Shown: one piece after another, positions 3,170 to 28,416 of the stretch | Layout: every line of letters starts with the position of its first letter | Position numbering within the stretch: the first letter of the stretch is position 1 | Assembly: GCA_963718915.1 (NCBI GenBank) | Contig: CAVRAI010000007.1 | Coordinates: 390,001-422,000, forward strand | Length of the DNA: 32,000 nucleotides | Origin: an uncultured Chloroflexia bacterium | GTDB lineage: Bacteria; Chloroflexota; Ktedonobacteria; Ktedonobacterales; JADMIN01 | Direction: 5' to 3' | The notes under the pieces: model-generated | Told to the model about the DNA's origin: nothing | Database searches by the model: none | What the model saw: only the letters and a program-made list of their open reading frames with translations | Position numbers and translations under genes: made by a program

Positions 3170-3246
3170 CCGTAGCGTGAACGCTACGGCGAATGGGCGA
3201 ACGCGATGGTGGGGCGGGAAAATTCGCCGGGGCCTTTAGGCTCCGG
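3170..3246 (+). repeat. Structured intergenic element, copy 2
   Basis: Hairpin CGTAGCG-TGAA-CGCTACG at 3171-3188. GGCGAAT 3188-3194 pairs with ATTCGCC 3222-3228. Tail is GGCCTTTAGGCTCCGG. Lies 97 nt upstream of the hydrolase start at 3344. Confidence 0.8.
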
Positions 3247-3343
3247 CAAGCATTCCTCAGACCGCTGCTGCAGGCCGGAGATGTTTCCGCGCTATTTTCT
3301 AAAACAGCATTATGTGGAATTTCAGAAAGTGGAGGGTCGGACG

Positions 3344-4264
3344 ATGCGTCTCTTTGGCAAGCGGGCATCACAGGTGGATGCCGGCGGTGGTTCCGTGGCC
3401 GCGACTTCTTCCGATGCTGTCGGCGCGCACGATCTGCGCCTCTCTGACGTGACCATTCACTACCAGAGCTGGGGTCAGCCATCCACCTCGGAGCGCGCGG
3501 TCGTCCTCATCCACGGGTTGACGGCCAGCTCCATGGAGTTCGCCGAGCTTGGGCCAGCGTTGGCCGCGCAGGGTTACTACGCCATCGCGCTCGATCTGCG
3601 CGGGCGCGGACTCAGCTCGAAGCCCGCCCATGGCTACAACGTCGCGTTTCACGCCGCCGACGCGCTGGCGCTCTGCGACGCGCTCAACCTCGACGCGGTC
3701 AACGTCGTCGGCCACTCGCTGGGCGCGGTCATCGGCATGTATATCACCGCCATCGCGCCGCAGCGGGTGCGCAAGCTGGTGCTGATTGACGCGGGCGGCA
3801 ACATTCCGCAGGATACCGCGCAGGCGATCTCCGCCTCAGTCTCGCGGCTGGGAACTGTCTATCCCTCGCTGGACGCTTTCCTTGGCCTGATGCGCCAGCT
3901 GCCGATGCTGCAATGGAACAACCTATGGGAGCAGTACTTCCGCTACGACGCCGACGTCCGCCCGGACGGCACGGTGACCTCGCACGTGCCGAAGGCTGCC
4001 ATCGAGGAGGAGTCGCTGGCGCTGGCGCTGACCCGTTCGGAGGCGTTGCCCGATCTGGTGAAATGTCCGACGCTGGTCGTCCGCGCGACGGTGGGGCTGC
4101 TCGGCCCAGACGCGGGCTTCATTCTGCCGCGCGATGAGGCGGCGCGCCTCTGCAGCGTCATCGCCGACTGCCGCCTGCTCGAAGTGCCCGACACCAACCA
4201 CTACACAGTCGTCATCGCCGACGCCACCGTCGCAGGCATCCAGGGCTTCCTGGCGGATGGGTAG
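3344..4264 (+). CDS. alpha/beta-fold hydrolase
   Basis: ATG at 3344 is preceded by GGAGGG. The longer ORF from 3206 runs through repeat copy 2 and is unlikely. Motifs: 'VVLIHGLTAS', nucleophile elbow 'GHSLGA', C-terminal 'PDTNHY' His region. 306 aa. Confidence 0.85.
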   Translation: MRLFGKRASQVDAGGGSVAATSSDAVGAHDLRLSDVTIHYQSWGQPSTSERAVVLIHGLTASSMEFAELGPALAAQGYYAIALDLRGRGLSSKPAHGYNVAFHAADALALCDALNLDAVNVVGHSLGAVIGMYITAIAPQRVRKLVLIDAGGNIPQDTAQAISASVSRLGTVYPSLDAFLGLMRQLPMLQWNNLWEQYFRYDADVRPDGTVTSHVPKAAIEEESLALALTRSEALPDLVKCPTLVVRATVGLLGPDAGFILPRDEAARLCSVIADCRLLEVPDTNHYTVVIADATVAGIQGFLADG

Positions 4265-4265
4265 A

Positions 4266-4307
4266 GTTGGCGCGAATGCGCAGGGTATGTGGAGCATCCG
4301 CGCCAAC
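4266..4307. terminator. Inverted repeat between convergent genes (possible bidirectional terminator)
   Basis: GTTGGCGCG (4266-4274) and CGCGCCAAC (4299-4307) form a 9-bp perfect stem with a 24-nt loop, filling the 50-bp gap between the stops at 4264 (+) and 4315 (-). No clear U-tract. Confidence 0.4.
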
Positions 4308-4314
4308 CTAATGG

Positions 4315-6489
4315 TCAAGAATAGCTGGAAGTACTTCGTATAACATCGGCTTGGATTTCAGCGTTCTCGGCTTCTGCCTTACGACCCATTAGTCTCAATG
4401 TGTCCGCTTTTGCATCCCATGCAATGGGATTGTTAGCGTCTATGGAGAGTCTCTGATCATAGGCAGCGAGAGCTTCTTTGTATCGTTTCATAGCCGTGAG
4501 CAGTTGGCCTTTCGATAGCCAGGTCATGTTATGTCTGGGATCAAGAGTTAGCACCTGGTCAAAGGCTGCTAACGCCTCCTCGTTACGGCCGAGGTAGCGC
4601 AATACCGACCCCTTATCGTCCCAGGTTCCCGCATGTTCGGGATCAAGAGTTAGTGCCTGGTCAAAAGCGGCTAATGCCTCTTCATAGCGCCGCAACGTCT
4701 GAAGCGTCCACCCCTTGTAACTCCAGGCAGCGGCCAATTGGCTATCAAGGATGAGCGCCTGATCGAAGGCAGTCAGTGCCGCTTCGTCTAATTTCAACTC
4801 CAGGAGTGCTATGCCATTGTTCAACCACGCTCTAGCATCCTTTGGGGCAAGTGCTACTGCCTGTTCATAGGCGGTCAGAGACTCCTCATACCGCCCCAAT
4901 TGTTTCAGCACTTTACCTTTACGTTGCCATACGTTCGAATCCTTTGGGGTAAGGGTGAGTATCTGATTATAGATGGCGAGCGCCTCTTCATATCGCTCTA
5001 ATCGCAAGAGGATTGTAGCTTTCAATCCCCATGCATCTACACTCCTGGCATTGATCGAAATCGCTTGTTCGCAGGCGGTGAGCGCCTCCTCATCTCGGTT
5101 TAACAAAACGAGCGCGGCCCCTTTGCCGGCCCAAAAAGAGTCGTTTTGAGGGCCGAGTGCGACTGCCTGATCCCAGGCTTCCAGTACTTCCTGGTGTCGC
5201 TCCAATTCGACGAGTGCGTCACCCTTACATATCCATGTCAGGGCATCGCGGGGATTAATGGCGAGTGATTGATTAAAGGCCGAAAGCGCCTCTTCTGGCA
5301 GCTTCTTGCCGACGAGCGCCATACCCTTGCTGAACCATGCGAACGCGTTATTCGGGTTGAGAGCGATCGCCCGATCAATAGCAGCCAGCGCTTCCTCCTC
5401 CCGGTCCAGCGTACTCAGTACCATCCCTCTGTTCACCCAGTCAGAGTCATCTTTGGGATCGAAGGTAAGAACCCGCTCACATAATGCATGCACCTCTTCG
5501 TCTGAGCGATCCAACCCTTCGAGCGCGAAGCTTTTGTGAGACAGCGCCAGGACAAAATTGGGGTCGAGACTGAGCGCCTGCTCACAGGCCGCCAGCATCT
5601 CCTCCCAATGCATCTGCCCCCGCTGCAATACAATCAGTTCAGTGAGCAATGTCAGTTGTGGTTCGGTTTCATCTATCGGGATATAGGTTTGGGCGCGCGC
5701 CAGCAGCTTCATGGCTTCCTCTATCCGCCGCAGCAGGATTAGCGCCTGGGCCTTGCCACGTATGGTAGGCACATCATATGGATCATCGGCTAGAGCGTTA
5801 TCGAGCGCAGCCAGCGCGGTGGCGCCGTCTTCAAGTTCAACGGCGGCCAGCCCCAGTTCGCGCCAGAGTTGCGGCGTCATCGCCTCTGGCGCTTCGTCCT
5901 GTAGAGTTCGCGCTCGTATGAGTACCTGCCGCCAGTCCTTGCGGCCAAACGCGGTATGTATCTCCTGCATCAGGCGCGCAACCAGGCGCTCTTTTGGCGT
6001 CCCTGACGCGGCGGAGGATGCTGGTGAGGGGGCTGTTATAGCGGCTGGCGTCACGCTCCCCGTTTCTGCTGAAATTGGGCCAGTGTAGCCCAGTTCGCGC
6101 AACAATGAGGTCAATCGCGCCTCGTAGGGCAGGTCGTCGCCAAAAGGTAGCGCTTGAATGAGTTGCCAGTCTGCGGGTGTCTGGCAGGTACGATACATCA
6201 GCGGCAGGAGGTGTTTGCCGAGCTTGACGTGCTGCCAGTAGGCGATGCCCATCTCACGCGGTACCCAGTCTGAGGCGAGCGCATCAGGCGAGAGTAACAC
6301 AAGAAACGTGCCGCGCGCAGTAATCTCGGCGACGATACGATTCCACCACTCGTCACCGCCATGAAGACCGCCGGAGACATCGTACCAGACGGCATCCTCG
6401 CCCAGGTGCGCGCGCAGATCGGCGACTAGGCGCTTGCCAAACGCATCATCTTTGCTGCTGTGGCTGAAGAACAAACGCACCTGCTCCAT
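4315..6489 (-). CDS. TIR domain - TPR repeat fusion protein
   Basis: 724-aa ORF with AAGGAGAG upstream of the ATG. The N-terminal ~125 aa, 'RLFFSHSSKDDAFGKRLVADL...AVWYD...FLVLLSPDALASDWVPREMGIA', fit the bacterial TIR pattern, including the S-x-W-x(3)-E glutamate (E79, codon 6253-6255). From about aa 190 to the C-terminus there are roughly 14-15 tandem 34-aa TPR units of the form 'W..KG.AL..L.R.EEAL.A.DQAL.L.P'. Confidence 0.9.
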   Translation of the reverse strand: MEQVRLFFSHSSKDDAFGKRLVADLRAHLGEDAVWYDVSGGLHGGDEWWNRIVAEITARGTFLVLLSPDALASDWVPREMGIAYWQHVKLGKHLLPLMYRTCQTPADWQLIQALPFGDDLPYEARLTSLLRELGYTGPISAETGSVTPAAITAPSPASSAASGTPKERLVARLMQEIHTAFGRKDWRQVLIRARTLQDEAPEAMTPQLWRELGLAAVELEDGATALAALDNALADDPYDVPTIRGKAQALILLRRIEEAMKLLARAQTYIPIDETEPQLTLLTELIVLQRGQMHWEEMLAACEQALSLDPNFVLALSHKSFALEGLDRSDEEVHALCERVLTFDPKDDSDWVNRGMVLSTLDREEEALAAIDRAIALNPNNAFAWFSKGMALVGKKLPEEALSAFNQSLAINPRDALTWICKGDALVELERHQEVLEAWDQAVALGPQNDSFWAGKGAALVLLNRDEEALTACEQAISINARSVDAWGLKATILLRLERYEEALAIYNQILTLTPKDSNVWQRKGKVLKQLGRYEESLTAYEQAVALAPKDARAWLNNGIALLELKLDEAALTAFDQALILDSQLAAAWSYKGWTLQTLRRYEEALAAFDQALTLDPEHAGTWDDKGSVLRYLGRNEEALAAFDQVLTLDPRHNMTWLSKGQLLTAMKRYKEALAAYDQRLSIDANNPIAWDAKADTLRLMGRKAEAENAEIQADVIRSTSSYS

Positions 6490-6552
6490 TGTCTGCTCTC
6501 CTTATTTTGTGCTTGACTGCACCGAAAGCGATGAACCAATGAATCTGACAGT

Positions 6553-6580
6553 ATTCTAGCACGGGCTGTATGGTTCGTCA
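6553..6580 (-). promoter_or_regulatory. Candidate sigma70-type promoter for the TIR-TPR gene
   Basis: On the minus strand: TGACGA (6575-6580), a 16-nt spacer, then TAGAAT (6553-6558), about 60 nt upstream of the ATG at 6489. Hexamer matching only. Confidence 0.3.
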
Positions 6581-6656
6581 CGGGGAAAGATGGTTCAAAA
6601 TCTATCGAGATGCGCGCGATGAGGGCGTCTGGGTATTCATGCCAGGCGAAGCCTTC

Positions 6657-8423
6657 CTATGCGGGTGAGATCAGCAGGTCGGAGAAGGTAATCGTGCCAT
6701 TACTGCCTCCAACGAAGACACCGACCTGACCGGATTGCGGCACGTCATCCCCAACATAGCTGCCGACATACTGCCCGTTGACGAAGAAGCTCAACCTGGA
6801 ACCTTGCATCAGCACTGCCAGCCGGTTCGTCGCGTCCAGCCCCTGATGAATCGCCGCTAAGCCGCCAAAGGAGCCTTCATAGCGCAGGTCTCTATAATTG
6901 GACTCTGGCCCGTCGCCTTGTTTGGGGCGGAGATTCAGATGCCACTCGCCGTTCGGCGTGATCGTGAAGGCCAGCGCTGTGTTGCTGCCCGAATTTGCGC
7001 GAAATAATATGCCCGCGTCGTTCAAGTCGAAGTCCACCTGCTGGCGCATCGTCACCTCAACCAGCCCATCATGCATCGTTTGGGGGATGAGGCTGCCAAC
7101 ATTACAGCAGGTATCGGACGTGAAGACATAGCCGCTGGGCGTAAAGCTAACGCCCTTTGCGGCATCCGCTGAGGTGAGCGTCCACTGGAGCGTATTCGCC
7201 GTCAGTGGATCGCTGATATGTGACGTTGCGGTCTCCAATTGCGTAAGTTGCCCCCCAAAATACCACTGTTGCGCAGATGGGATGAGAATGCCCCCAAGCA
7301 GCACAAGCACCGATAACGCAGCGGCACATATGGCGGCTGGCCAGCGTGGCAGTGCTGACTCCCCAAAATGCCACGCGCTGGCCGCGAGCAGTCTGGGACG
7401 CCGCCAGGGAGATAGTTCCGAGACTTCAGACGAGATATGGAGCGCGCCGGGATTCAGGTCGCGTAGCGGAAAGTTCACCCGCGCCTGGACGAGTTGAGCG
7501 AGTCGCTGCCCTGGGTCTTCAGCAAGCACATACGGTGGGTAGGTAAGCCAGAGCAGGCTTGTATGCAGTCCAATCACGGCGTAAACGATATTGGAGCGCG
7601 GGTTGCTCATCTGTACAGGATTCATGGCGAAGGCAAACCAGCCGCGCGCCTCCGACCAGGGCAGCGCGTGTTTGCCCCAATGCAGGCCATCCCCGCGCGC
7701 CTCAACCTGGATTGCGCGTACCTTGCGTGTGATCGAGACAAACCACAACCCGCTCTGGATAGGGAACAAAGCGACTAAGGCGTACATCTGCCATGGAAAG
7801 AAGTTCTGCGCTAACAGCGTTCGTTCCACGAAGAACAGCGCCACCCACATTGCGACAACGCCCACACCCAGGCACAGGTTGAATCCGTACGTGATCTGCT
7901 GAGTGCGCAGCAGTCTCGACTCGGGCGGCATCACCTTGAACGATGTGGCGGGTGTGTCCAGTGGTTGCGCTGCCTGGCCAGTGGGGAAAATCGCAATCGG
8001 CGGCGCGAGGCTATCGTCGCCTGCCAGCGCGCCCCAGCTCAGACTACGGATGCTCACCTGGCCGGGAGCGGATATTCCTGCTGGCGCTCGGCGCTCCTGA
8101 CGGCGAACATGCCAGATGCTCCCCAGGATGATGACTTGCACCAACATCGCGAGACCCGCGAGCATCCAGTAAAACATCCAGTCAATGAAGCCATTGCTGT
8201 ACCACAAGGTGATAAGGCTTACCAGCGCAATGATGGTATACACAATGATAATGTGCCATCTTGTCCCCCACGGGTCCATGGCGCGCTGGAGTACTCCTCG
8301 CTGTGGCGGCTCGGCGAGTTGCTGGAGACCGCCGACAAGCGCTTTACATACCTTATCGGACGGATAGAGCGGAAGGCCGGGAATATAGCCATACATATCT
8401 CGTTCTGGCGTCTGTATATTCAT
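6657..8423 (-). CDS. Multi-pass membrane protein with C-terminal extracytoplasmic ConA-like (LamG/DUF1080-like) jelly-roll domain
   Basis: 588-aa ORF. Hydrophobic helices at about aa 55-105 (2), about 185-235 (2) and about 365-385 (1). The C-terminal ~190 aa, 'DGLVEVTMRQ...AGILFRANSG..ALAFTITPNGEWHL...SFFVNGQYVG...GQVGVFVGGSNGTITFSDLLI', match the pattern of DUF1080/LamG-type lectin folds. The family assignment is by eye. Confidence 0.7.
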   Translation of the reverse strand: MNIQTPERDMYGYIPGLPLYPSDKVCKALVGGLQQLAEPPQRGVLQRAMDPWGTRWHIIIVYTIIALVSLITLWYSNGFIDWMFYWMLAGLAMLVQVIILGSIWHVRRQERRAPAGISAPGQVSIRSLSWGALAGDDSLAPPIAIFPTGQAAQPLDTPATSFKVMPPESRLLRTQQITYGFNLCLGVGVVAMWVALFFVERTLLAQNFFPWQMYALVALFPIQSGLWFVSITRKVRAIQVEARGDGLHWGKHALPWSEARGWFAFAMNPVQMSNPRSNIVYAVIGLHTSLLWLTYPPYVLAEDPGQRLAQLVQARVNFPLRDLNPGALHISSEVSELSPWRRPRLLAASAWHFGESALPRWPAAICAAALSVLVLLGGILIPSAQQWYFGGQLTQLETATSHISDPLTANTLQWTLTSADAAKGVSFTPSGYVFTSDTCCNVGSLIPQTMHDGLVEVTMRQQVDFDLNDAGILFRANSGSNTALAFTITPNGEWHLNLRPKQGDGPESNYRDLRYEGSFGGLAAIHQGLDATNRLAVLMQGSRLSFFVNGQYVGSYVGDDVPQSGQVGVFVGGSNGTITFSDLLISPA

Positions 8424-8718
8424 ATGTGCGCGATACCTCTCGCTGATACTGGCACAAACGCTTCCAGCGTGAAATGCGCTTCGTCTAGGCCGCTAAATGG
8501 CCAGCAATCGTCACGATTATACACCGCACGGCTACTGCGTCAATCATCGCGCGAAATCTCATCGGTCATATTGCCCGCACCGCTTCAGTATTTCTGCCGT
8601 CGTTATCCTCTCCCTTGGCATAGTCCGCTGGGTGTGGTAGAAACCAGGTGAGAGGTGTGCTCCATCGGAGGCGCGCACCGCCTGTATGCTATGCCTACCA
8701 CCCAAGGAGAACAATCCA

Positions 8719-9237
8719 ATGGACCACCTTCCAAGCATGAAGAGCGATCCCAATCAGGCGCTGGTTGTCTCGTTCCCCGATGAGAACAAAGCACAGGAAG
8801 TGCTGGAGACCCTGAAGCAGCTCAACGCCGCCCACGATGTCGCGCTCAGCAGCGCCGCCGTCATCCGTCGCGATCCAGACGGCAAGATCAACGTCCACGA
8901 GACACGCGACTTCAATGCGAAGCAGGGCGCCGTCGCGGGCGCGCTGGCGGGCGGGCTGATCGGCCTGTTGCGCGGCAATGCGCTGGCGGGCGCGGCCATC
9001 GGCACGGCGGCGGGTTTTGGCGCCAGCAAGATCCTCGACCTGGGCCTCCCCGATGACTTCCTGAAGCAGATCGGCGAGCAGTTGACGCCGGGCAGTTCGG
9101 CCCTCGTCGCCATCGTCACCTTCGAGAACGTCGCCGAGGCGATGAAGGTGCTCGACCAGTACGCGGGCGCGAAGATTCTGCATAGTGCGCTCTCGCCCGA
9201 TGTCGCTCAGCAGCTCTCCGCCGCCATCGAAGACTGA
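8719..9237 (+). CDS. DUF1269-family membrane protein
   Basis: ATG at 8719 is preceded by AAGGAGA. 'ALVVSFPDENKAQEVLETLKQL...VALSSAAVIRRDPDGKINVHE' followed by Gly/Ala-rich TM segments 'GAVAGALAGGLIGLL' and a second alpha/beta half is the typical DUF1269 layout. Confidence 0.8.
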   Translation: MDHLPSMKSDPNQALVVSFPDENKAQEVLETLKQLNAAHDVALSSAAVIRRDPDGKINVHETRDFNAKQGAVAGALAGGLIGLLRGNALAGAAIGTAAGFGASKILDLGLPDDFLKQIGEQLTPGSSALVAIVTFENVAEAMKVLDQYAGAKILHSALSPDVAQQLSAAIED

Positions 9238-9259
9238 CCTCTAGATCGCGTTTCGTCTG

Positions 9260-9287
9260 GCCCCTTCCGGTGTGGAAGGGGCTTTTT
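9260..9287 (+). terminator. Rho-independent terminator
   Basis: GCCCCTTCC (9260-9268), loop GGTGT, GGAAGGGGC (9274-9282), then TTTTT (9283-9287). Lies 23 nt after the DUF1269 stop. Confidence 0.85.
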
Positions 9288-9403
9288 CGTGCCATGTGAA
9301 ACTATAAGCCCCCATTAAGGCCATCTTAAGCGCACACTAAGCTTGCTGATACATAATAGCCTCCATATGGTGGAGCAATCTTCGCAGAGTGGGGTGGCGC
9401 AGC

Positions 9404-11093
9404 ATGGATGATTCCTCCCGTCCGCAGTCGCGAGCCAGCGACGCGGGGCGTCTGGCGGATGCCACAGATACGATTCCGCGAGCCGGAAGCAGCTGGCAGT
9501 TGCCAGAGGTTCAGCCGCCGACCGCCGGTATCACCGATGACCGGACGATACCCATCTCGTCGCCGGGCAAGGCGTCGCGGCGTGGGGTGAGTCGCCGCAA
9601 AGCGCTGATTGGCGCGGGCGCCGGAGCCGTTGGGCTGGGGCTGCTCGGCACGGGCGCCGCCGTATTTCTAGCGCGCCAGCAGTCGGCCAGCCCCGCCACG
9701 CTCTATGCGGACGACGCCGCGAAGATAGGCCACCTGTTGCGCCGGGCGGGCTTCGGCTCGTCGCCCGCCGACCTTCAGCAGTACCTGAGCCTGGGCGTCT
9801 CTGGCGCCATCGAGAAGCTGCTCAACTTCTCTGGCGTCTCCAACACGGCGCTCGATGCCCGGCTCAACTCACTCAACCTCAACTTCACCAACCGGCAGGA
9901 TCTGATTCGCTGGGTGCTGCTGCGCATGATCTACAGCCCGCGCCCATTCGAGGAGAAGCTGACGCTCTTCTGGCATGGCGTGCTGACCAGCAGCTTCACC
10001 AAGATTGGCGGCACCACGCACCTGCCGTTCATGATCCAGCAGAACCAGTTGCTGCGCGCGAAGGGGCTGGGGCAATTCGACGACCTGATGCACGCGGTCA
10101 CGATTGATCCAGCCATGCTCTACTGGCTGGATGGACGGCTTAGTTCCGGCCACTCGCCCAACGAGAACTACTCGCGCGAGTTGATGGAACTCTTCACGAT
10201 GGGTATCGGCAACTATACCCAGGACGATGTGCATCAGGGGGCGCTGGCGCTGACCGGCTGGGTCGTCCGGGCGGATGGGGCGCACTACGTTCCGGCGCGC
10301 CACTATAACGAGCTCGGTCACCTTCCTGGGGCATACTGGCCCGATGACCGTAGACGACGTCATCAGGATCGTCTGCGCGCACCCGGCCACCGGCACGCAT
10401 ATCGCTCGGCGCATGTGGAGCTTCTTCGTCTACGACAACCCCAGCCCGCAGGACTTGAAGCCGCTCTCCGACGCCTATTACCAGCACGATCACAGCATCG
10501 CGGCGATGGTGCGCGCCATGTTCTCCTCGCCCGCGTTCTTCAGCGCGCAGGCCTACCGGGCGCGGGTCAAGAGTCCGCTGGAGTTCGTCGTCGGCGCCAT
10601 CCGCGCGCTGGGGCTAGAGACGAACGCCACCGGGCTGGCGACCGTCCTCAACGCGATGGGCCAACTACCACTCGATCCGCCCAATGTGGCGGGCTGGCCA
10701 GGAGATGGCGCGAGTGGGGCATGGATGTCCACGCAGGCCTGGGTCACGCGCATCAACCTGACCGACTTGCTGGTCTCGATTGCGGCGGGCGCGCACCCGA
10801 AGGGCGGCCCGAAGATCAACCTGACGACCCCGGGAGGGACGTCGGCCATCCAGCAGGCGATCACACAGCAGAAGATTGCCAGCGCCGATGCTCTGGTGAG
10901 CTACTACGTCGCCATGCTGCTGGACAACACGCTCGATCCCAGCCGCCGCGCCGTGCTGGCCGATGCGCTGACGAACAGTCCGATTCAGGGCGGCGCGACG
11001 TTCACGCTGGCGGGCGGCAAGAAGGTCTCCGCCGCCGCGACGGCTGAGATGCTCTACCTGCTGATGTCGCTGCCTGAGTACCAGATGAATTGA
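9404..11093 (+). pseudogene. DUF1800-family protein (Tat signal), interrupted by a +1 frameshift near 10316
   Basis: The N-terminal part is in the 9389 frame ('SRRKALIGAGAGAVGLG' twin-Arg signal; 'IGHLLRRAGFG', 'FWHGVLTS', 'YSRELMELFTMG'). After 'RHYNE' that frame turns into Arg-rich nonsense. The homologous C-terminal part ('VTFLGHTGP...VCAHPATGTHIARRMWSFFV...VKSPLEFVV...LPEYQMN') continues in the 10275 frame. Removing one G from the GG at 10316-10317 restores 'HYNELVTFLG'. Confidence 0.8.
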
Positions 11094-11118
11094 GGGGGAA
11101 GTCCTTCGTGGGCGCCGT

Positions 11119-11190
11119 CCGCAGCATAAATGCTGCGGCGAATTGGCGGCGAATGGGCAGGGAAATTCGCCGTGGCCTTCAGGCTACGGC
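11119..11190 (+). repeat. Structured intergenic element, copy 3
   Basis: Hairpin CGCAGCA-TAAA-TGCTGCG at 11120-11137 has a stem fully compensated relative to copies 1 and 2. GGCGAAT is duplicated (11137-11143, 11148-11154) and pairs with ATTCGCC at 11165-11171. Tail is GGCCTTCAGGCTACGG. Lies between DUF1800 and DUF1501, 51 nt before the ATG at 11242. Confidence 0.75.
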
Positions 11191-11241
11191 GGGCCAAAGT
11201 ACAACAGTCGAGCGCGATTGATTCATGAGAGGTGGTGCGTC

Positions 11242-12570
11242 ATGCCCAACACGCCCAACACGCCTGGCCAGCCATGCAAACCGTTCAATGCGCCATTCAG
11301 CCGGAGAGCGATGATTCGCGATGGACTGCTCGCGGTTAGCGCGGGCATGGTCATGCCGACGATCTTCTCGCGCGCCGTCCGGGCGGCCTCCAACGCGGCG
11401 CATGAGGGCGCGCACTGGGCGCAGGCGGCGCAGGGACGCACGCTGATTGTGGTGCAGATGGCGGGCGGCAACGACGGCCTGAATACGCTCATCCCCTACA
11501 CCGATGGCGCGTACTATTCCGCACGGCCAACGCTGGCCATCGCCCAGGCGGACGCCCTCCATCTCAACGACCGGCTCGGGCTGCATCCCGCGCTCAAGGC
11601 GCTGATGCCGCTGTGGCAGCAGGGACGCCTGGCCGCCATCGAAGGTGTCGGCTATCCAAACCCCAACCTGTCGCACTTCGCCGCGATGGACATCTGGCAG
11701 ACGCTCGATCTGAACGGCCAGGGCGGGCAGGGCTGGCTCGGCAAGTACGTCGCCGGGCTGGTGGATAAAGATGGCCACCCATTCCAGTCGCTCGCCGTCG
11801 GCACCTCGCTGCCGGTCGCGCTGAACGCGATCAACGCCGATGTGCCCGTGGTCGCCTCGCCGTCTACCTATCGGCTGCAGCCCGACCCGGAGGGCGCCAG
11901 CGCGGCCAAAAATGGCACGGCCGCCAATGCGCGGGTCGAGACGCTGCTGAAGCTCTACAATACCTATCCACGTTCGGCGCCGTATGCCGCGCTGCTCGAT
12001 GCGACGGCCCAGGCGGCGGTGGATGGATCGCGCCAACTCGATACCGCCGTCGCCAGCTACGTCCCGAAGGCGCAGTATCCGAACACGAACTTCGCCAAGG
12101 GCTTGCAGGTGCTGGCGGAGGTGATCGTCCAGGGGCTGGGGCTGCGCGTTGGCTATGTGACGCTGGGCGGCTTCGATACCCATGGCGAGCAGGCGAATAC
12201 CCAGGCGGGGCTGCTGCAACAACTCGCCGAGGGGCTGGCGGCGTTCTATAGCGACTTACAGGGACACAATGCCGCCGATAATGTCGTGGTGATGACCTGG
12301 TCGGAGTTCGGGCGGCGCGTGGAGGAGAACGCCAGCGCGGGCACCGACCACGGGACGGCGGCGCCCCTCTTCGTGCTGGGCAACGCGGTGCAGGGCGGCG
12401 TCTATGGCGAGCCGCCCGACCTCACGAAGCTGGACCCCAACGGCAACCTCGTCTTCACGACGGACTTCCGCTCGATCTACGCCACTGTGCTCGACCGCTG
12501 GCTCGGCGCGCCCGCCAGCGCGGTGCTCGGCGGCAACTATGGCGAGCAGGCGTTCCTGCCGCCCGCATGA
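11242..12570 (+). CDS. DUF1501-family protein (sulfatase-like fold, Tat signal)
   Basis: ATG at 11242 is preceded by GAGAGGTGG. The longer ORF from 11143 runs through repeat copy 3. Motifs: twin-Arg signal 'FSRRAMIRDGLLAVSAG', 'LIVVQMAGGNDGLNT', 'GGFDTHG', 'SEFGRRV.EN...GTDHG'. It forms the usual DUF1800-DUF1501 gene pair. Confidence 0.88.
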   Translation: MPNTPNTPGQPCKPFNAPFSRRAMIRDGLLAVSAGMVMPTIFSRAVRAASNAAHEGAHWAQAAQGRTLIVVQMAGGNDGLNTLIPYTDGAYYSARPTLAIAQADALHLNDRLGLHPALKALMPLWQQGRLAAIEGVGYPNPNLSHFAAMDIWQTLDLNGQGGQGWLGKYVAGLVDKDGHPFQSLAVGTSLPVALNAINADVPVVASPSTYRLQPDPEGASAAKNGTAANARVETLLKLYNTYPRSAPYAALLDATAQAAVDGSRQLDTAVASYVPKAQYPNTNFAKGLQVLAEVIVQGLGLRVGYVTLGGFDTHGEQANTQAGLLQQLAEGLAAFYSDLQGHNAADNVVVMTWSEFGRRVEENASAGTDHGTAAPLFVLGNAVQGGVYGEPPDLTKLDPNGNLVFTTDFRSIYATVLDRWLGAPASAVLGGNYGEQAFLPPA

Positions 12571-12597: not shown

Positions 12598-12892
12598 GGA
12601 GCCAGAGGCAGTCCTGCAAAAGCTATCAAAAGCCATAACAGGAAAATGCGAACACAAAAGCGTCTGCCCCGCGCATCGCGGCAGGGGTGACACACCACAC
12701 AGCCGTTATTGCCGACATTTTCAGTCGGTTGCGGGAGGCAGACATATTTTCTATTTAGCTGGCCAGAGAGACGTGTACGGCGCACTCTGGCCTCAGCCGG
12801 GACAAGACCGCGCTGGTTCAGCATAGGTGGCCGCGTCCGTCGATTTCCCGCGAAGAGGACTCGTGCGGATTTACTGGCCGGAAACGCTGGAT

Positions 12893-13016
12893 CATCCGCC
12901 GCACGCGCCAGACGGAACCCTTCGTTGTTGTTGAAGTTGTCCCGCCTGTTGTCGTTACGGTAGGCCGCGCGCGTATTCTGGGAATCGTTGTTCCATGAAC
13001 CGCCACGCAGCACTGA
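12893..13016 (-). pseudogene. Decayed 3'-terminal fragment of an FGE-sulfatase-domain gene
   Basis: Aligns without gaps, at a 360-bp offset, to 13253-13376 (the 3' end of the TIR-FGE gene); most positions are identical by eye. It encodes 'VLRGGSWNNDSQNTRAAYRNDNRRDNFNNNEGFRLARAADD' versus 'VLRGGSWDVGSQYTRAAYRDGSRWVSFDDSGGFRLARAAAG'. The rest of the FGE domain is absent upstream and the native stop is lost. Confidence 0.75.
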
Positions 13017-13241: not shown

Positions 13242-14540
13242 TTATGCTGAACCAGCCGCCGCACGCGCCAGACGGAACCCCCCGCTGTCGTCGAAGCTGA
13301 CCCACCTGCTGCCGTCACGGTAGGCCGCGCGCGTATACTGGGAACCGACGTCCCACGAACCGCCACGCAGCACTCGATTATCAGTGGAATCTGGATTCTC
13401 TCGTCCGTCGTTTTTACGGTAGGGATAGGGCTGGAGGAGGCTGCTCGTCCACTCCCAGACGTTGCCTGCCATATCCTGGACATGATACGGGCTTTCGCCG
13501 GTGGGATAGCGACCGACGGGCGTAGTCCTCCCGATGCCGCTCTCGCTGGTGTTGCAACGTGCCTTGTCGAACGTGTCGCCCCAGGGATAGATGCGGCCAT
13601 CCGTCCCGCGCGCCGCCTTCTCCCATTCTGCCTCGGTCGGCAGCCGCCATGGCTGGCTCGTAAGCTTGGCCAGCCAGGCGCAATATGCGACTGTGTCATT
13701 CCACGAGACACAGACCACAGGATGGTCAGGGTGCGCCTGCTGCGTCGCCCAGTCTACATCATCCCAGCTTTTTTCTGGCTCTCTCACGGCTTTGGCACGG
13801 ACGGCGCAGGCGTATTCAGCCACGGTGACGGGGTGCTGGCCGATGGCGAAGGCGTCCACCTCAACTGGATATTGTGGCGTCTCGTCGTCATCGGCATCTT
13901 TGTCGCGGCTCTTGTCGCTGCCCATGGTGAAGACGCCTGCCGACACCGGACAAATCGGCGGCAGGATGCACTCAACCCCGCCGATGGTATAGCCGCGAAA
14001 GCCAAGGTCATAGTAGGGTTTGGGTGTCAGATGGTGCGCGGGCGCGCTGTTGGCGGGGACGGGCGCCGGGCCGAGTGGCGGCAGGGTATCAGGCGGTGGA
14101 GGAGGTGGTAGCGGATCGCCACCATGCGCGTCGAGGATCACCCGATACGCCCGCATGGCGGCGGCTTGCGGTGGAAATGCCGCTCCGCCCGGCTGCTCGA
14201 TCCGCTTGTAGCCCTCCAGAAGAAGCGGCACATCGCAGGGAATCGCGGTGACGAATTGAATCGTCTCGATGCTCCCTTTGCGCCGTAGCGCCCGCGCCGC
14301 GTCTATTTCGTCGTTGACCCACCCAGAGTTCACCGCTGCCGGGCTGAGAATGGCAATGAAATGCTGACACTTGCGCAGTTCAGCTTCAATCACCTGCCGC
14401 AACGCTCCCCAGCCGAGATTATGCTCGTCGTACCAGACGGCGTTCTCATTGCCCAGCGCCTCGCGGAGCGCCCCCACGAACGCGCGACAGAAGTCATTAT
14501 CGGTGTGGCTGTGGCTGACGAAAACCTGTGGTGTGGCCAT
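13242..14540 (-). CDS. TIR domain - FGE-sulfatase (SUMF1/formylglycine-generating-enzyme-like) domain fusion protein
   Basis: ATG at 14540 is preceded by GAGGGA; the ORF-track start at 14708 adds 56 non-homologous residues. TIR: 'VFVSHSHTDNDFCRAFVGALR...AVWYD...FIAILSPAAVNSGWVNDEIDAA' (E78, codon 14307-14309). Poly-Pro linker: 'PLPPPPPPDTLPPLGPAPVP'. FGE domain hallmarks: 'FTMGSD', 'HPVVCVSWNDTVAYCAWL', 'RLPTEAEWEKAARG', 'AGNVWEWT', 'VLRGGSW', 'GFRLARA'. 432 aa. Confidence 0.9.
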   Translation of the reverse strand: MATPQVFVSHSHTDNDFCRAFVGALREALGNENAVWYDEHNLGWGALRQVIEAELRKCQHFIAILSPAAVNSGWVNDEIDAARALRRKGSIETIQFVTAIPCDVPLLLEGYKRIEQPGGAAFPPQAAAMRAYRVILDAHGGDPLPPPPPPDTLPPLGPAPVPANSAPAHHLTPKPYYDLGFRGYTIGGVECILPPICPVSAGVFTMGSDKSRDKDADDDETPQYPVEVDAFAIGQHPVTVAEYACAVRAKAVREPEKSWDDVDWATQQAHPDHPVVCVSWNDTVAYCAWLAKLTSQPWRLPTEAEWEKAARGTDGRIYPWGDTFDKARCNTSESGIGRTTPVGRYPTGESPYHVQDMAGNVWEWTSSLLQPYPYRKNDGRENPDSTDNRVLRGGSWDVGSQYTRAAYRDGSRWVSFDDSGGFRLARAAAGSA

Positions 14541-14780
14541 ATATCCCTCAACAGCAATCAGCATGAGCGCTACCACGAGCAGTTGGCGCGATGGCTTGCA
14601 CGCACAGTGTAACCCATCTATGGCGCGATGGGAAGAGCGCGGAATGGTTGATAAGCGTTGTGCGCGCCCGTCGCACGATACCGCAACGGACGCGATGAGC
14701 CGCGGCATTCATGCTGCGATGCTGGAGCATCTCCAACCTCGCCCGCGCCAAAAACACCCGCTACATATCTCAACCTTCAC

Positions 14781-14995: not shown

Positions 14996-15952
14996 GTGGC
15001 AGTGGCCATAATGCCTCTTGCGTTGCGAAAAAGAGTGTGCCCCATGCAACCACCGCAGAATCCACCAGAGCAATCACCACAGCAATCACCACAGCAAACA
15101 TCGCAACAGCCGCCGCGGGATGCTCTGTATGGAGGCGACCACAACCAGAGACATAACGGTGCCGACGGCGATGCCAACGACGCGTCCGCTGCACCGCCGT
15201 TCGAGTCTCCGCACCAGGCACAGCCACATATACAGGCACGCCCGCCCCTGAGTCGCAGGACGCGCTGTCTCATCGTTGCTAGTACCCTGCTTGCCGTGTT
15301 CGTCTGTGGCTCAACTGCCTGGGTGCTGGCGGCGCATACGTCTTTGTTGTCTTCGCAGGTGGTCGGTTCGCGTGCTACCAACACCCCCTACCTCACACCG
15401 ACCTCGTACTATACCCCTGTACCGACGATTCCCGTGTCACCGGGCACGTTAAGCGCCATCATTTACACCCCCACCCTCGGAGGCTCCCTTGGCGCCTTCC
15501 AGCAGAAATACGGCCCCTCCACCGACGGCAGCGGCCTGACCTACACCGCTGTGATCGCGGGCCAGCCGGTACAGATGCTGATTGCGCCGGGTGATCCGAG
15601 CAAGAGTTTCGATGGACGGGCGCACGTGGTCGAAGTGCAGGTGTGGGCGCCGAGTGACCGGCTCGCTAGCGAGCACTGGAGCGCCTCGACCGTAGCTGCA
15701 ATAGTGAATATGCTCTTACCCGCCGACGCGCGCTTCCAGCGCACCGCCTCCATCAGCAGGCTGGGCGATATCGTCGTCACCGAGCACATCTACACCAGCA
15801 AAGGAATGGCGAGCACGTTTACGCCCGACCAGTTCATCACTGCGTCTAGCGGCGCACAGGTGTCTGTCGGCACAGTCAACTATTTCTGCGAGCGGCAACC
15901 GCCCGCCACCAGTGGCTATGAATTGTGTGACGTCTCCATTGGCGCCTCGTAG
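14996..15952 (+). CDS. Hypothetical single-pass membrane-anchored protein with Q/P-rich N-terminus
   Basis: 318-aa ORF. The start is uncertain (GTG 14996, ATG 15011 or ATG 15044). It has a low-complexity 'QPPQNPPEQSPQQSPQQTSQQPP' tract, one TM helix 'CLIVASTLLAVFVCGSTAWVLAA', then a ~200-aa extracytoplasmic domain I do not recognise. High GC3 supports coding. Confidence 0.6.
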   Translation: MAVAIMPLALRKRVCPMQPPQNPPEQSPQQSPQQTSQQPPRDALYGGDHNQRHNGADGDANDASAAPPFESPHQAQPHIQARPPLSRRTRCLIVASTLLAVFVCGSTAWVLAAHTSLLSSQVVGSRATNTPYLTPTSYYTPVPTIPVSPGTLSAIIYTPTLGGSLGAFQQKYGPSTDGSGLTYTAVIAGQPVQMLIAPGDPSKSFDGRAHVVEVQVWAPSDRLASEHWSASTVAAIVNMLLPADARFQRTASISRLGDIVVTEHIYTSKGMASTFTPDQFITASSGAQVSVGTVNYFCERQPPATSGYELCDVSIGAS

Positions 15953-15996
15953 ATGCAGCTCAAGCAGCACCGTTCCTTCCGTATGTCAGGCGTCCA

Positions 15997-17286
15997 CTAC
16001 ATACTCTCAGCCTGTACAACATCTGGATCGCGTAGCCGCCGCACGGGCGAACGCGCCAGCAGCACCGGGCCGAGCAGCTTGCCCGCGCAGACCACGAAGA
16101 GCGTCGCGCGCACGCCAAGCGTCTGCCCCAGGACGCCGCCGAGCGCCAGCCCGAGGACCGTCGCGCAGCCCTCGACCGCCCGCAGCGTCGCGTGCAGCCG
16201 TCCCTGCATCCGGTCGGGCGTCGTCCGCTGAAAGTGGCTCAGGCGCGTGACACTGTATATCGTGTGCGCCGCGTCGAAACACTGTCCGAGTATCAGCACC
16301 CCCACCGCCAGCCAGGCGGGGCCGCTCGCCAACGGGACGGTAAATGCGCCGAGGGTGTAGATGAGCATTGACGCCATCAGGATGCGCCCAACCGGCCAGC
16401 GCCGCGAGATGCGTGCCACGACCAGCGTTCCGGCGAATGAACTGACGCCGCCTACCGCGTAGATGACGCCCATCACCACAGGCGCGAGATGCAGGTCACG
16501 GACAAGATAGAGCGTTATCAGCGCGCCCAGGGCGTTGCCAAAGAGGGTGTCAACCGCCCCGGCAGCCGCCAGCGCCCGCCGTGTGGCATCGGCGGCTACG
16601 AATCCCAGCCCCTGCGCCACCTCGCGCGCCATGCTCTTTCGCGCTTCAGGCACAACAATCGGCGGCGACTCTTTCGTGCGAATCGCGAGAAGCGAGACGG
16701 CGGAGACGACGAACGTGACGGCATCCACCAGAATCGCCAGCGGCGCGCCTGCCACCTGGACCAGCACGCCCGCGACGCTCCAGCCCGAAACCTCGGCCAG
16801 CGACTCGCTGGCAGCCAGTTTGCTGTTGCCCTCGACCAGATCCTCACGCCGCAGCAGTGACGGCAAGAACGAGGGATAGGCGACATCGAAGAAGACGCTA
16901 CATACACTCACCAGCACAGCTACGACATACAACTGTTCCATGCGCAGCGCTCCCAGGACGGCAGCTAGCGGGATGGAGGCGAGCGCCAGCGCCCGGCCAA
17001 TATCGGCGGCGATCAGCAGCGGACGGCGACGCAGCCGATCCACCCAGACGCCCGCGAAGAATCCGAGCAGCAGCCCCGGCACGACCTCGGCGGCGGCCAA
17101 CAGCGCCATCTGGCCCGCGCCCGCGCCAAGCAGCAGCGCAGCAAGCAGTGGCAGGGCGAACGTGGTCAGCAGCGAGCCGAACAGCGAGATCGACTGCCCC
17201 GCCCAGAGCTTGAGAAAATCAGCATGACGCCAGAGGTTTGTCGAGGCGTCGGGCGTATCTTCACGAGATGGTAGACGAACGGACAT
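15997..17286 (-). CDS. MFS transporter (EntS/MFS_3-like)
   Basis: ATG at 17286 is preceded by GGAGAG. 429 aa with a ~12-helix hydrophobic profile. The N-terminus 'LWRHADFLKLWAGQSISLFGS' is typical of this MFS subgroup. The ORF-track extension to 17478 has no support. Confidence 0.85.
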   Translation of the reverse strand: MSVRLPSREDTPDASTNLWRHADFLKLWAGQSISLFGSLLTTFALPLLAALLLGAGAGQMALLAAAEVVPGLLLGFFAGVWVDRLRRRPLLIAADIGRALALASIPLAAVLGALRMEQLYVVAVLVSVCSVFFDVAYPSFLPSLLRREDLVEGNSKLAASESLAEVSGWSVAGVLVQVAGAPLAILVDAVTFVVSAVSLLAIRTKESPPIVVPEARKSMAREVAQGLGFVAADATRRALAAAGAVDTLFGNALGALITLYLVRDLHLAPVVMGVIYAVGGVSSFAGTLVVARISRRWPVGRILMASMLIYTLGAFTVPLASGPAWLAVGVLILGQCFDAAHTIYSVTRLSHFQRTTPDRMQGRLHATLRAVEGCATVLGLALGGVLGQTLGVRATLFVVCAGKLLGPVLLARSPVRRLRDPDVVQAESM

Positions 17287-23632: not shown

Positions 23633-25267
23633 TCAGGCGGCGCCCAGCCAGGCGATGAGGCATTCGATGCCTTCGTGTGTGCCCGTCACCTCGCGCAGTC
23701 TGCGGCCAAGCGTGCGCATCATCCAGGCGTTGCCGACCTGCGGGTTGTCGCGTAGCTCGCGCATCTCACTGGCCGCGCGGCGGACACGGAGAAGCATCTC
23801 ACGCGTGCAGAGGCCAAACCCTTCGACATATTCGAGGCTGCGGCGTCGGCAAGCCGACTGGGCGGATGGCTCGGCGAGTCGCCCGGCAAGCGCTTCTTCA
23901 GCGCATCCTAGCCGGTGGGCCAGCGCCAATTCGGTCAGCACTCCGGCTGTGGATGCCTCGTCGCAGACCGCCTCTATCTCCGCTGCAACTCTATGCCCCA
24001 TCGTTGCTGCAATGGCCCACGACAATAGCTCAGGGAGCGCCCGCATCTCGTCGTGGCTGGCATACCGCAGCTTAGAGACTGGCGAGTCAGCGTCTCCACC
24101 ACAGACCAGCGCATCATCACCCATTCCAAGCAGCGGAATCGCCTGGGCCAGCGGCGCCAGCCGCGCGGGAGTCTCGCCTGTCGCCAGCGGGAGCAGCGCA
24201 ACGCGCTCATCGCCACGAACGAACTGGCATAGCGCCAGCGCAAACTGGCTGCCCGCCACCAGTGGCTCATGCACACGCCGTAGCGCCCAACCATCCAGCG
24301 CGCCCGCACGCCGCAGGGCGGCAACCTCACCCATGAACTGATCCATGCGGTCGAGATGCGTGCGGAGCGCGGCGATGCTAAGTTGGGGTGTGTTGGTCGC
24401 GCCGAGAAAGGCCAGTGTCTCGCCCTCCAGGCGGAAGAGCAGCTCGCCGCCTTGCGGAGCCGCCACCAGCGCCTCGCCACTACGCGCGGGCAGCCCGCAC
24501 ATCAGCAGCAGCGAGAGCAGCCGCGCCAGTTTTGCGCCGTGGCGCGTCCAGCTTTCCAGCGCATCCTGCCGCCCGTGCAATACCAGTTCGCGCCCGCCCA
24601 ACTCGACCGATACCCCCGTTCGCGCGGCAAGCTCATAGACCCGCTCGGCGTCGGTGGCTGAGAGCGCGCGCGCCAGATTCACCCGTACCTGTGGCGATTG
24701 CGCCAGCACGGCAGCCGCCACCGCGTAGTTGTAGCGTACGATTACATCTTCGGCAGAAGGGCGCGCGCCAGTGCGGACGAGAATCGCCTGCTCCGGCGCG
24801 TCGAGCGTGATGAGTTCATCCAGTTTTCTGGCTTCCAGTCCCAACTCGCGCTCAGCCTCCGCCATGAAGGACGCGCGCTCTTCCCGGCCCGCGAAGCCCG
24901 GCAACTTGCGGTTCACCCGGCGAAACAGCCAGAGCCGCAGTTCGCTGGCGCTGCAAATGCTCTGAGCCGCCAGCGCCGCAATGTCTTCAGGCGCCAGCAC
25001 CTCAGCCAGAGCGCGGGGACGGTGGCGATAATGCGCGCCGAGGCAGGCCACCAGGCATCGCGCCACTTTGTGATCGCCGAACAGCTGGACGATCACCTCA
25101 TCGTCCAGCGCGCGGCGGGGCTGGCCAAGCATGCGCTCCATGTAGCGGATCGCCATCTCGATGCGCGGCGCAAGGCTGGCGTCGCGCAGGAAGCGTGGAT
25201 AGATGACGCGCATGCCATCCTTGCCGCTACGTCGGGTTGTCTTGCGCAGGTCGGTGAGCTTGAGCAT
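23633..25267 (-). CDS. DUF790-family protein (Bax1-like nuclease partner of XPB helicases)
   Basis: 544-aa ORF starting 6 nt after the helicase stop, with AAGGAG embedded in the helicase 3' end. The N-terminus 'MLKLTDLRKTTRRSGKDGMRVIYPRFLRD' resembles the conserved DUF790 N-terminus (ML..dLl......g..i.P.fl). Adjacency to an XPB-type helicase is the family's signature context. Assignment is from memory, not a search. Confidence 0.6.
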   Translation of the reverse strand: MLKLTDLRKTTRRSGKDGMRVIYPRFLRDASLAPRIEMAIRYMERMLGQPRRALDDEVIVQLFGDHKVARCLVACLGAHYRHRPRALAEVLAPEDIAALAAQSICSASELRLWLFRRVNRKLPGFAGREERASFMAEAERELGLEARKLDELITLDAPEQAILVRTGARPSAEDVIVRYNYAVAAAVLAQSPQVRVNLARALSATDAERVYELAARTGVSVELGGRELVLHGRQDALESWTRHGAKLARLLSLLLMCGLPARSGEALVAAPQGGELLFRLEGETLAFLGATNTPQLSIAALRTHLDRMDQFMGEVAALRRAGALDGWALRRVHEPLVAGSQFALALCQFVRGDERVALLPLATGETPARLAPLAQAIPLLGMGDDALVCGGDADSPVSKLRYASHDEMRALPELLSWAIAATMGHRVAAEIEAVCDEASTAGVLTELALAHRLGCAEEALAGRLAEPSAQSACRRRSLEYVEGFGLCTREMLLRVRRAASEMRELRDNPQVGNAWMMRTLGRRLREVTGTHEGIECLIAWLGAA

Positions 25268-25273
25268 CGGATA

Positions 25274-27645: not shown

Positions 27646-28416
27646 ATGAGTAACGACAGCACCGATAATCGCGCGCGCTTCGCGCAGGCCACCGAGATCA
27701 CCACCGCTACCTATGACCGTGTCGCGCACAACTATGCCGACCGCAACGATTCACGTCCGGGGCATTGGATGGAGCGGATGGAGCAGTTCGTCAACCTGTT
27801 GGAGGAGAACGAGGCGCGCCAGCCGATCCCCGAACTGGGGCGGCCCGGCGATGACGCTTCACTCGAAGAGTATCTGCAATTCGTGCCTGTGCTTGACGCT
27901 GGCTGCGGGCCGGGACAGGACGCCCGCGCGCTGGCGGCATACAATTTGCCCGTGCTGGGGGTGGACATCTCGCAGGGCATGCTCGACGAGGCGGGCGAAC
28001 GAACCGCACGGCGGCTGCCGAAGGGGTTCATCCGCTACGCGCTGATGGACATGCGGCGGCTGGACCTGCCCGACGCCAGTTGTCGCGGCGTCTGGTGCTC
28101 GGCGTCGCTGCTCCATCTGCCGCTGCGCATCGCGCCACGTGCCGTGCGTGAGCTGGTGCGGGTGACGCGCGTCGGGGGGCCGCTGGCGGTCTTTCTGAAA
28201 GCGCGCAGACCCGATGAAGAGGCCGAGCGGTTGCAGACATACGAGCATCTCGAAGAGGAGCAGGGTCAGCGCTTCTTCGCCTATTACACCCCGGACGAGG
28301 CGCGGGCCTTGCTGGAAGACGCCGGAGTTGAGGCGCTGGAAATGGCGACGATCCCCGACCCTCGCACGCCCGAGACGCTGGGCTGGGTGACGCTGCTGGC
28401 GCGCAAGCCCCTATAA
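27646..28416 (+). CDS. Class I SAM-dependent methyltransferase
   Basis: GAAGGGGA lies upstream of the ATG. Motif I 'VLDAGCGPGQDARALA', later motifs 'GVDISQGML' and 'GVWCSASLLHL', and 'RVGGPLAVFLK'. 256 aa. Confidence 0.85.
   Translation: MSNDSTDNRARFAQATEITTATYDRVAHNYADRNDSRPGHWMERMEQFVNLLEENEARQPIPELGRPGDDASLEEYLQFVPVLDAGCGPGQDARALAAYNLPVLGVDISQGMLDEAGERTARRLPKGFIRYALMDMRRLDLPDASCRGVWCSASLLHLPLRIAPRAVRELVRVTRVGGPLAVFLKARRPDEEAERLQTYEHLEEEQGQRFFAYYTPDEARALLEDAGVEALEMATIPDPRTPETLGWVTLLARKPL

Follow-up and report, generated by a model that had tools for sequence, protein, structure and literature searches.

A TIR-TPR fusion of the Ktedonobacteria as a candidate single-chain immune sensor-effector without an NTPase switch

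Single proteins that couple an effector to a repeat sensor are established in bacterial immunity. Here, we compare with them a 724-aa protein that joins an N-terminal TIR domain to a C-terminal TPR array. Its gene lies in a 32,000-nt stretch from an uncultured Chloroflexia bacterium of the Ktedonobacteria (contig CAVRAI010000007.1, positions 390,001 to 422,000), hereafter the window; the coordinates of all features are collected in Table 1. Among the described systems, TIR-II is a validated anti-phage system of E. coli that has TIR and TPR in one protein and can consist of a single gene (PMC11350192). TIR-II was reported to be more abundant than any other TIR system, and an ATPase is present in only ~30% of its members (PMC11350192); its defence needs the TIR active-site residues (PMC11350192; Nat Commun 2024). 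DSR2 and Dsr1 are single-chain proteins with a SIR2 NADase and a repeat sensor, without a STAND nucleoside triphosphatase (NTPase), in which NAD+ depletion sets in once a structural protein of a phage binds directly (PMC11087589, PMC11850899, PMC13581612). An Avs sensor is reused in the NTPase-less Dsr1, and the Dsr1 sensor is common to Avs7 (PMC13581612). The sensors of bacterial STAND proteins fall into three classes, namely TPR, WD40, and FGE-sulfatase (PMC13581612). Additionally, C-type-lectin sensors varied by diversity-generating retroelements (DGRs) occur in conflict systems of multicellular bacteria (PMC10907252, PMC7159879).

In domain composition, by which alone the two were compared, the TIR-TPR protein resembles TIR-II, as both hold TIR and TPR in one chain, without an ATPase here and in most TIR-II members. 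TIR-II comes from Proteobacteria, whereas the present family is specific to Ktedonobacteria and is marked by a conserved linker, a four-hairpin mid-module, and exchangeable sensors. The likeness to DSR1/DSR2 lies in the logic of an NADase-type effector under a repeat sensor without an NTPase and implies no homology; those proteins have a SIR2 effector and HEAT-like or bilobed sensors, whereas the TIR-TPR protein has a TIR domain and a regular consensus TPR superhelix. The Avs/STAND-NLR proteins (TIR-NLR in PADLOC) likewise carry an N-terminal TIR and a C-terminal TPR-like sensor, and their three sensor classes are the same as those of the family described below. However, their defining central NTPase (NB-ARC, NACHT or similar) is absent here, and the protein is therefore not a STAND/Avs member. 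SARM1 (ARM-SAM-TIR) and SPARTA TIR-APAZ also place a TIR NADase under a helical-repeat or partner sensor with TIR-TIR assembly, but their domain order, SAM ring, and Argonaute are absent from the TIR-TPR protein, and the identity is only 17-26%. An 824-aa chain deposited in the PDB as 'Tetratricopeptide repeat protein' (9m0n / 9umd) has an N-terminal TIR as well. The TIR of 9m0n aligns with residues 4-80 of the TIR-TPR protein, including its Glu motif 'SEWVKKEI', and the PADLOC TIR-NLR profile, like the 9m0n chain, is 824 positions long.

A preliminary description of this DNA had taken the protein for a binary sensor-effector that was unusual and not a named system. The fusion of TIR and TPR without an NTPase stands, and the sensor part is plausible, but the judgement of novelty is outdated: TIR-II (PMC11350192) and Dsr1/DSR2 (PMC13581612, PMC11087589) are established, and the gene is a further example of the single-protein TIR+TPR anti-phage type already known from E. 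coli TIR-II. We read the protein as a stand-alone, single-chain immune (conflict) sensor-effector, a predicted NADase gated by its array, and we assign this reading a probability of about 0.5. The TPR superhelix would bind a protein or peptide that is foreign to the cell, most likely one from a phage, and binding would bring about self-association or the relief of autoinhibition, possibly via the conserved mid-module. The TIR domains would next come together to form the composite active site on which TIR NADases depend and would hydrolyse NAD+, so that the infected cell would stop growing or die (abortive infection). The whole course would proceed without any NTPase switch.

Judging from sequence and model, the N-terminal domain is a genuine TIR with a catalytic-type glutamate and is a predicted NADase. 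The Pfam profile TIR_2 (PF13676) matched residues 7-119 with an E-value of 1.8e-14 and a score of 54.7 bits (cutoff 28). With 38 homologues as input, the AlphaFold2 (AF2) model of residues 1-137 reached a predicted local distance difference test (pLDDT) of 91.5. Searched against the PDB with Foldseek, this model gave a probability of 1.00 and query TM-scores (TMq) of 0.70-0.79 to SPARTA, SARM1, AbTir, and Hydra TRR-2, the best (0.76-0.79) being to SPARTA TIR-APAZ and AbTir. In the profile and structure searches, which the preliminary description had proposed as a check, the domain scores as a TIR, and NADase TIRs are its best structural matches. In AbTir, SARM1, and plant TIRs, the catalytic residue is the glutamate of the W-x3-E motif, which lies in helix C. 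Its counterpart here is E79, whose codon had been placed correctly beforehand; it lies within 'SDWVPREM', aligns by sequence with the Glu of AbTir 'KDWTNYEL' and of Cat1 'SDWCWDEL', and is invariant across the family alignments A1, A3, and A6. Against the syntenic relatives, the TIR was under strong purifying selection, with a ratio of nonsynonymous to synonymous divergence (dN/dS) of 0.06-0.09.

The TIR could instead act as a Thoeris-like signal generator, making a cyclic ADP-ribose isomer or related nucleotide for an unlinked effector, possibly one common to the TIR paralogues. The domain indeed shows weak similarity to ThsB TIRs, through domain-level PADLOC matches (E 2e-5 to 2e-3) and likewise in Pfam. 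The window has two TIR genes within 7 kb of each other, the lineage has many TIR paralogues, and many bacterial TIRs produce signals (bioRxiv 10.64898/2025.12.03.692087). However, among the genes adjoining the TIR-TPR gene in the window and in its two syntenic relatives, L001 and L002, none encodes a ThsA-like, SLOG, Macro, caspase-like or other nucleotide-binding effector. Furthermore, the gene looks monocistronic, with its own ribosome-binding site (RBS) and terminator hairpin, and the best structural matches are NAD+-depleting TIRs, though the fold does not tell the product type. Because no nucleotide-activated effector adjoins in any of the three syntenic loci, NAD+ depletion is favoured over signalling, and we consider a signal generator rather improbable. 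Membership in Thoeris itself fails due to the missing adjacent effector gene: the neighbours are an alpha/beta hydrolase, a membrane protein without an assigned family, DUF1269, and SDR, and no SIR2/SLOG, Macro or transmembrane effector is among them.

The expected 724-aa TIR-TPR fusion was present as an open reading frame (ORF) with TIR_2 and TPR profile matches, among them TPR_1 and TPR_2 at E ~1e-62 (Pfam), and its N-terminus 'MEQVRLFF' recurs in the orthologue P0001. The full-length AF2 model (pLDDT 86) consists of the TIR (residues 1-136), the linker, and then 32 helices forming 16 hairpins over residues 165-723. The early estimate of ~15 TPR units was about right, given these 16 hairpins and 15 matches to a hidden Markov model (HMM) made from the protein's own units, with the ten canonical units in perfect register. 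Two details of the same estimate needed correction. The TPR run does not follow the TIR without interruption, as the 28-aa disordered linker intervenes, and the units are not uniformly of 34 aa, as the hairpins at 165-312 are degenerate and separately conserved and only residues 348-687 are canonical. The array at 313-724 begins with a degenerate unit, continues with the ten canonical 34-aa units (348-687), and ends in a capping unit at the C-terminus. It satisfies the 34-residue helix-turn-helix signature W4/G8/L11/A20/P32, aligns without gaps with the 8-repeat consensus TPR 8bu0 (E 1e-32), and superposes on the OGT TPR superhelix. The unit at 420-448 had low model confidence, though its sequence is that of a normal TPR unit; we therefore attribute the low confidence to the AF2 alignment, which is shallow over the array. 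A Pfam search at E <= 0.01 found no NTPase, and apart from TIR_2 the matches were almost all to TPR-type or related helical-repeat families. The claimed lack of an NTPase switch is borne out by this result and by a model made of TIR, 28-aa linker, and helical repeats, in which there is no space for an NTPase domain between TIR and array.

Among the ten canonical units, the most variable positions were 2, 5, 6, 9, 12, and 13 (2.65-3.12 bits, 7-9 residue types per 10), which in TPR structures are the helix-A, concave-face positions that contact the ligand. Positions 4, 11, and 21 were invariant, and positions 7, 8, 14, 16, 18-20, 23, 26, and 30 were nearly so. A repeat search over 4000-9000 showed the 102-nt periodicity of the array DNA, and Tandem Repeats Finder reported no DNA tandem repeat. 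Two adjacent C-terminal units have a 51-nt segment in common that is 84% identical, which suggests that a unit was duplicated fairly recently.

A genome scan with the single TIR-TPR sequence gave six loci, and the closest relatives were all from Ktedonobacteria/Chloroflexota metagenome assemblies. The syntenic locus L001 has the order DUF1269, membrane protein, 449-aa TIR-TPR, alpha/beta hydrolase, SDR, and L002 the order DUF1269, 486-aa TIR-TPR, alpha/beta hydrolase. Identity to L001 and L002 was 90% and 87% in the TIR, 65% and 72% in the mid-module, 30% and 42% in the linker, with indels, and 33% and 38% in the TPR array. The last values are no better than the unit-to-unit identity inside one protein (~40%). 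The number of units also differed, with 12 in the array of the window against ~3-5 in L001/L002, whereas the flanking genes were 89-95% identical at the protein level. Synonymous divergence by the Nei-Gojobori method ranged from 0.85 to saturated in the TIR-TPR gene, compared with 0.18-0.6 in the flanks. As the divergence of the gene exceeds that of its flanks, the TIR-TPR alleles are older than their surroundings or were replaced by recombination. In L001, the flanking alpha/beta-hydrolase gene (5955-6865) matched the gene of the window in three separate tblastn pieces, which suggests that it is frameshifted or a pseudogene in that assembly.

This pattern bears on two further explanations. 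The protein could be a non-immune scaffold or regulator, whose TIR serves only for protein-protein contact and whose array organises a housekeeping or developmental complex. The housekeeping type of the neighbours, the resemblance of the array to OGT, APC/C, and chaperone TPRs, and the lack of a system-level match in defence databases would agree with such a role. However, an array at 33-38% identity and with 12 versus 3-5 units is unexpected beside flanks at 89-95%, the W-x3-E motif with its catalytic-type Glu does not vary, and sister proteins bear DGR-diversified domains. A purely structural role does not sit well with the invariance of this Glu and the pattern of divergence, and we regard it as very unlikely.

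Alternatively, the protein could be a determinant of kin or allorecognition and programmed cell death in a mycelial bacterium. The array would sense polymorphic proteins of non-kin Ktedonobacteria, and the TIR would kill or arrest the cell, as TPR/WD40 NLRs do in the heterokaryon incompatibility of fungi. For a multicellular, mycelial lineage, this reading accounts for the data as well as phage sensing does: the alleles at a conserved chromosomal site diverge strongly, their synonymous divergence exceeds that of the flanks, no recognised defence island surrounds them, and the family is confined to Ktedonobacteria/Chloroflexota in the searches made. Repeat-sensor and DGR systems have been tied to multicellular bacteria, and the kin alternative has been raised for them (PMC7159879, PMC10907252). 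On the other hand, a polymorphic partner gene is not apparent, one relative lacks the variable membrane protein encoded next to the gene, and the validated TIR+TPR and NADase-sensor systems target phages (PMC11350192, PMC13581612). We hold kin recognition to be unlikely.

Residues 1-311 matched three further loci, L003, L004, and L005, at 40-47% identity (40-76% over L001-L005). Beyond residue 311, L003 and L004 have an FGE-sulfatase domain, and L005 has seven WD40 blades. Residues 1-312 (TIR, linker, and four degenerate TPRs) form a conserved Ktedonobacteria chassis fused to TPR, WD40 or FGE-sulfatase. Its layout is a TIR, a low-complexity linker, a ~146-residue four-hairpin module with the motifs QEIHTAFG..W and LWRE.GLA, and then the variable C-terminal domain. 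The mid-module profile (165-312; A4) was searched exhaustively against 1.84 billion representatives; a word-indexed search with the mid-module alone gave no match. The top profile matches were mostly generic long TPR proteins, and family members were chosen by a full-length match in a single stretch. As a result, ~25 clusters contained the whole mid-module in one stretch, at about residues 150-310. TIR_2 was found in 20 of the 24 clusters scanned, the remainder looking N-terminally truncated, and no P-loop NTPase was among the families listed for these 24. The C-termini were TPR arrays, WD40 propellers (5-6 clusters), FGE-sulfatase (4 clusters), or 450-550 residues without a Pfam match. A search with a TIR-only profile (A6) was unusable for a census of architectures, as the proteins listed were all shorter than 250 aa and many were fragments. 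In L005, the DNA of the WD40 propeller (8605-9534) has a 126-nt periodicity with copies up to 84% identical, so the blades were duplicated or homogenised recently.

The preliminary description had counted two TIR genes in the window, and the other one was identified as the TIR-FGE-sulfatase gene. The end of this gene and a downstream copy form a variable repeat (VR) and template repeat (TR) pair, in which 18 of the 20 mismatches fall at template adenines (p 1.4e-9) and nearly all affect the first or second codon position. The 32-kb window holds no detectable reverse transcriptase (RT) or Avd, and the TR is therefore either orphaned (RT-Avd lost) or served in trans. A complete DGR cassette in the order VR-RT-Avd-TR was present in L003 (Ktedonobacteria metagenome-assembled genome DAIDGU010000084), where all 23 VR/TR mismatches fall at TR adenines (p 6e-15). 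Compared with this cassette, the window retains the TR and ~95 nt beyond it, without the RT-Avd segment. In L004, two 3' regions of FGE-domain genes (9207-10101 and 15715-16604) lie ~6.5 kb apart and are 76-95% identical in blocks. Both have downstream repeat elements of 60-88 nt in common, which occur again at 7701-7760, and the pair could represent paralogous targets or a duplicated cassette.

The FGE of L003, on the same chassis and with a DGR-mutagenised VR, and the TIR-FGE gene of the window, with its VR/TR pair, resemble the described DGR C-type-lectin/FGE systems. The described targets mostly have STAND or MoxR/vWA NTPase partners, whereas the chassis proteins have none in the same polypeptide; the TIR-TPR protein further differs in having a TPR array and no VR/TR pair. 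A DGR acting on the TPR array itself was considered and rejected, as the array has no TR copy. Since sisters with the same TIR type or chassis bear hypermutated ligand-binding domains, there is strong circumstantial evidence that the C-terminal modules of the family serve as variable recognition devices. The reading of the TPR array as a sensor gains indirect support from the hypervariable contact positions, the divergence of the array in syntenic relatives, and the DGR-diversified sister sensors.

Several points weigh against an immune sensor-effector. The search of 4000-9000 found no VR/TR pair or TR-like copy of the array, only the internal periodicity, so that the DGR link belongs to the paralogues and not to the TIR-TPR gene. 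Only two syntenic relatives (L001 and L002) were available, both from metagenome assemblies, and the Nei-Gojobori estimates are saturated for the TPR array. Some TIR domains are scaffolds or signal generators and do not deplete NAD+. A search of a phage collection returned no relatives of the TIR-TPR protein, and a plasmid search returned matches at the level of the TIR domain only. The neighbourhood consists of MarR, alpha/beta hydrolases, SDR, DUF1269, and DUF1800/DUF1501 genes, with no recognised defence island. The PADLOC run that had been proposed as a check gave domain-level matches for the window proteins but no system-level match; PADLOC v2 is older than TIR-II. NCBIfam likewise gave no system-level match for the TIR-TPR protein, only domain-level or sub-threshold ones.

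With regard to expression, the RBS claimed for the gene was found 8 nt 5' of its ATG. The promoter proposed at 6553-6580 exists as a site, but such matches are not above chance (2 found in the TIR-TPR region versus 1.5 expected in the consensus scan); the site is therefore compatible with a promoter without being evidence for one. A strong hairpin sits between the convergent stops of the TIR-TPR gene and the alpha/beta-hydrolase gene (3206..4264, + strand), which are 50 nt apart, and is likely a bidirectional terminator. As this gap holds the hairpin, the TIR-TPR gene looks like its own transcription unit, apparently monocistronic. The gene is part of a low-GC islet at ~4300-8450, in which the GC fraction is 0.56 for the TIR-TPR gene (0.529 for the array) and 0.585 for the membrane-protein gene, compared with 0.64-0.67 in the flanks; the gene content of the islet is not the same across the three syntenic genomes.

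Directly upstream lies a predicted 588-aa membrane protein (6657-8423, - strand), for which Pfam, PADLOC, and NCBIfam gave no family. Its C-terminal ~190 aa had only a sub-threshold concanavalin-A-like match (Laminin_G_3, E 0.008). The protein is fast-evolving, with 65% identity to its L001 counterpart and a dN/dS of ~0.27, and L001 has extra fragments or paralogous pieces beside that counterpart (1341-2621). It was rejected as an obligate partner of the TIR-TPR protein because L002 has no counterpart; it is absent from L003-L007 as well. Elsewhere in the window, a DUF790 protein (544 aa) and an XPB/ResIII-type helicase (462 aa) at 23633-26662 (- strand) resemble Bax1-XPB, and the helicase matches PADLOC PbeA models across its core (E 5e-49). 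A 256-aa ORF at 27646-28416 (+ strand) matches the PADLOC model 'mad2' (E 1e-12). Rfam and tRNA scans of the 32-kb window gave no match.

Table 1. Coordinates of the features discussed, in the window unless the locus L003 is named.
Feature	Position	Strand	Basis or remark
TIR-TPR gene	4315..6489	-	ORF list, ATG start, 724 aa; stop codon 4315-4317; Pfam TIR_2 and TPR families
TIR domain, residues 1-136	6082..6489	-	Pfam TIR_2, AF2 model, Foldseek, dN/dS
E79 codon, putative catalytic glutamate (W75-x3-E79 motif)	6253..6255	-	family alignments and AbTir/Cat1 alignment
Disordered Ala/Pro/Ser/Thr-rich linker, residues 137-164, 28 aa	5998..6081	-	pLDDT 41-43, without secondary structure
Conserved mid-module, residues 165-312, four degenerate TPR-like hairpins	5554..5997	-	alignment A4
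TPR array, residues 313-724	4318..5553	-	own-unit HMM, 102-nt periodicity, 8bu0/OGT matches
Shine-Dalgarno AAGGAG	6498..6503	-	8 nt before the TIR-TPR ATG, read directly from the sequence
Sigma-70-like promoter match GTGACG-17-TAGAAT with upstream TG	6553..6581	-	consensus scan, 9/12 positions; weak
Strong hairpin	4262..4310		RNA fold -27.1 kcal/mol, z -5.4, 0/200 shuffles as stable
Second TIR gene, TIR-FGE-sulfatase	13242..14708	-	TIR 38% identical to the TIR of the TIR-TPR protein
VR / TR of the TIR-FGE gene	13246-13374 / 12886-13014	-	last 43 codons of the gene and 129-nt downstream copy, 84% identity
L003, complete DGR cassette	7803-11830		
L003, TIR-mid-FGE-sulfatase gene	7803-9956		
L003, VR	9825-9953		last 129 nt of the gene
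L003, reverse transcriptase (RVT_1)	10024-11220		
L003, bAvd	11277-11657		
L003, TR	11702-11830		129 nt

What appears to be new here is a lineage-specific chassis with exchangeable TPR, WD40, and FGE sensors, with members served by a DGR and with hypervariable alleles at a conserved site. More tentatively, we propose that the Ktedonobacteria may hold a family of NTPase-less TIR receptors, a possibility we still regard as doubtful. In such a family, the chassis would replace the STAND switch, the mid-module would be a device for autoinhibition or oligomerisation, and the sensors would be plug-in parts, the TPR members varying by gain and loss of units and substitutions at contact positions and the FGE members by DGR. 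The family has no name in current defence-finder models (PADLOC v2 and NCBIfam, without a system-level match), so the finding also concerns the annotation of Chloroflexota genomes. The consensus-like TPR array, which varies at its contact positions only, also recommends itself as a template for re-targetable sensors. If the sensor-effector reading is true, a repeat sensor alone can gate a TIR NADase, without the ATP-driven switch of NLR/Avs receptors. With three sensor types on a single chassis, including a DGR-diversified one, the family would then be a compact natural series for studying how ligand binding drives TIR assembly, and a plug-in TIR receptor family would amount to an anticipatory antigen receptor wired directly to an NADase.

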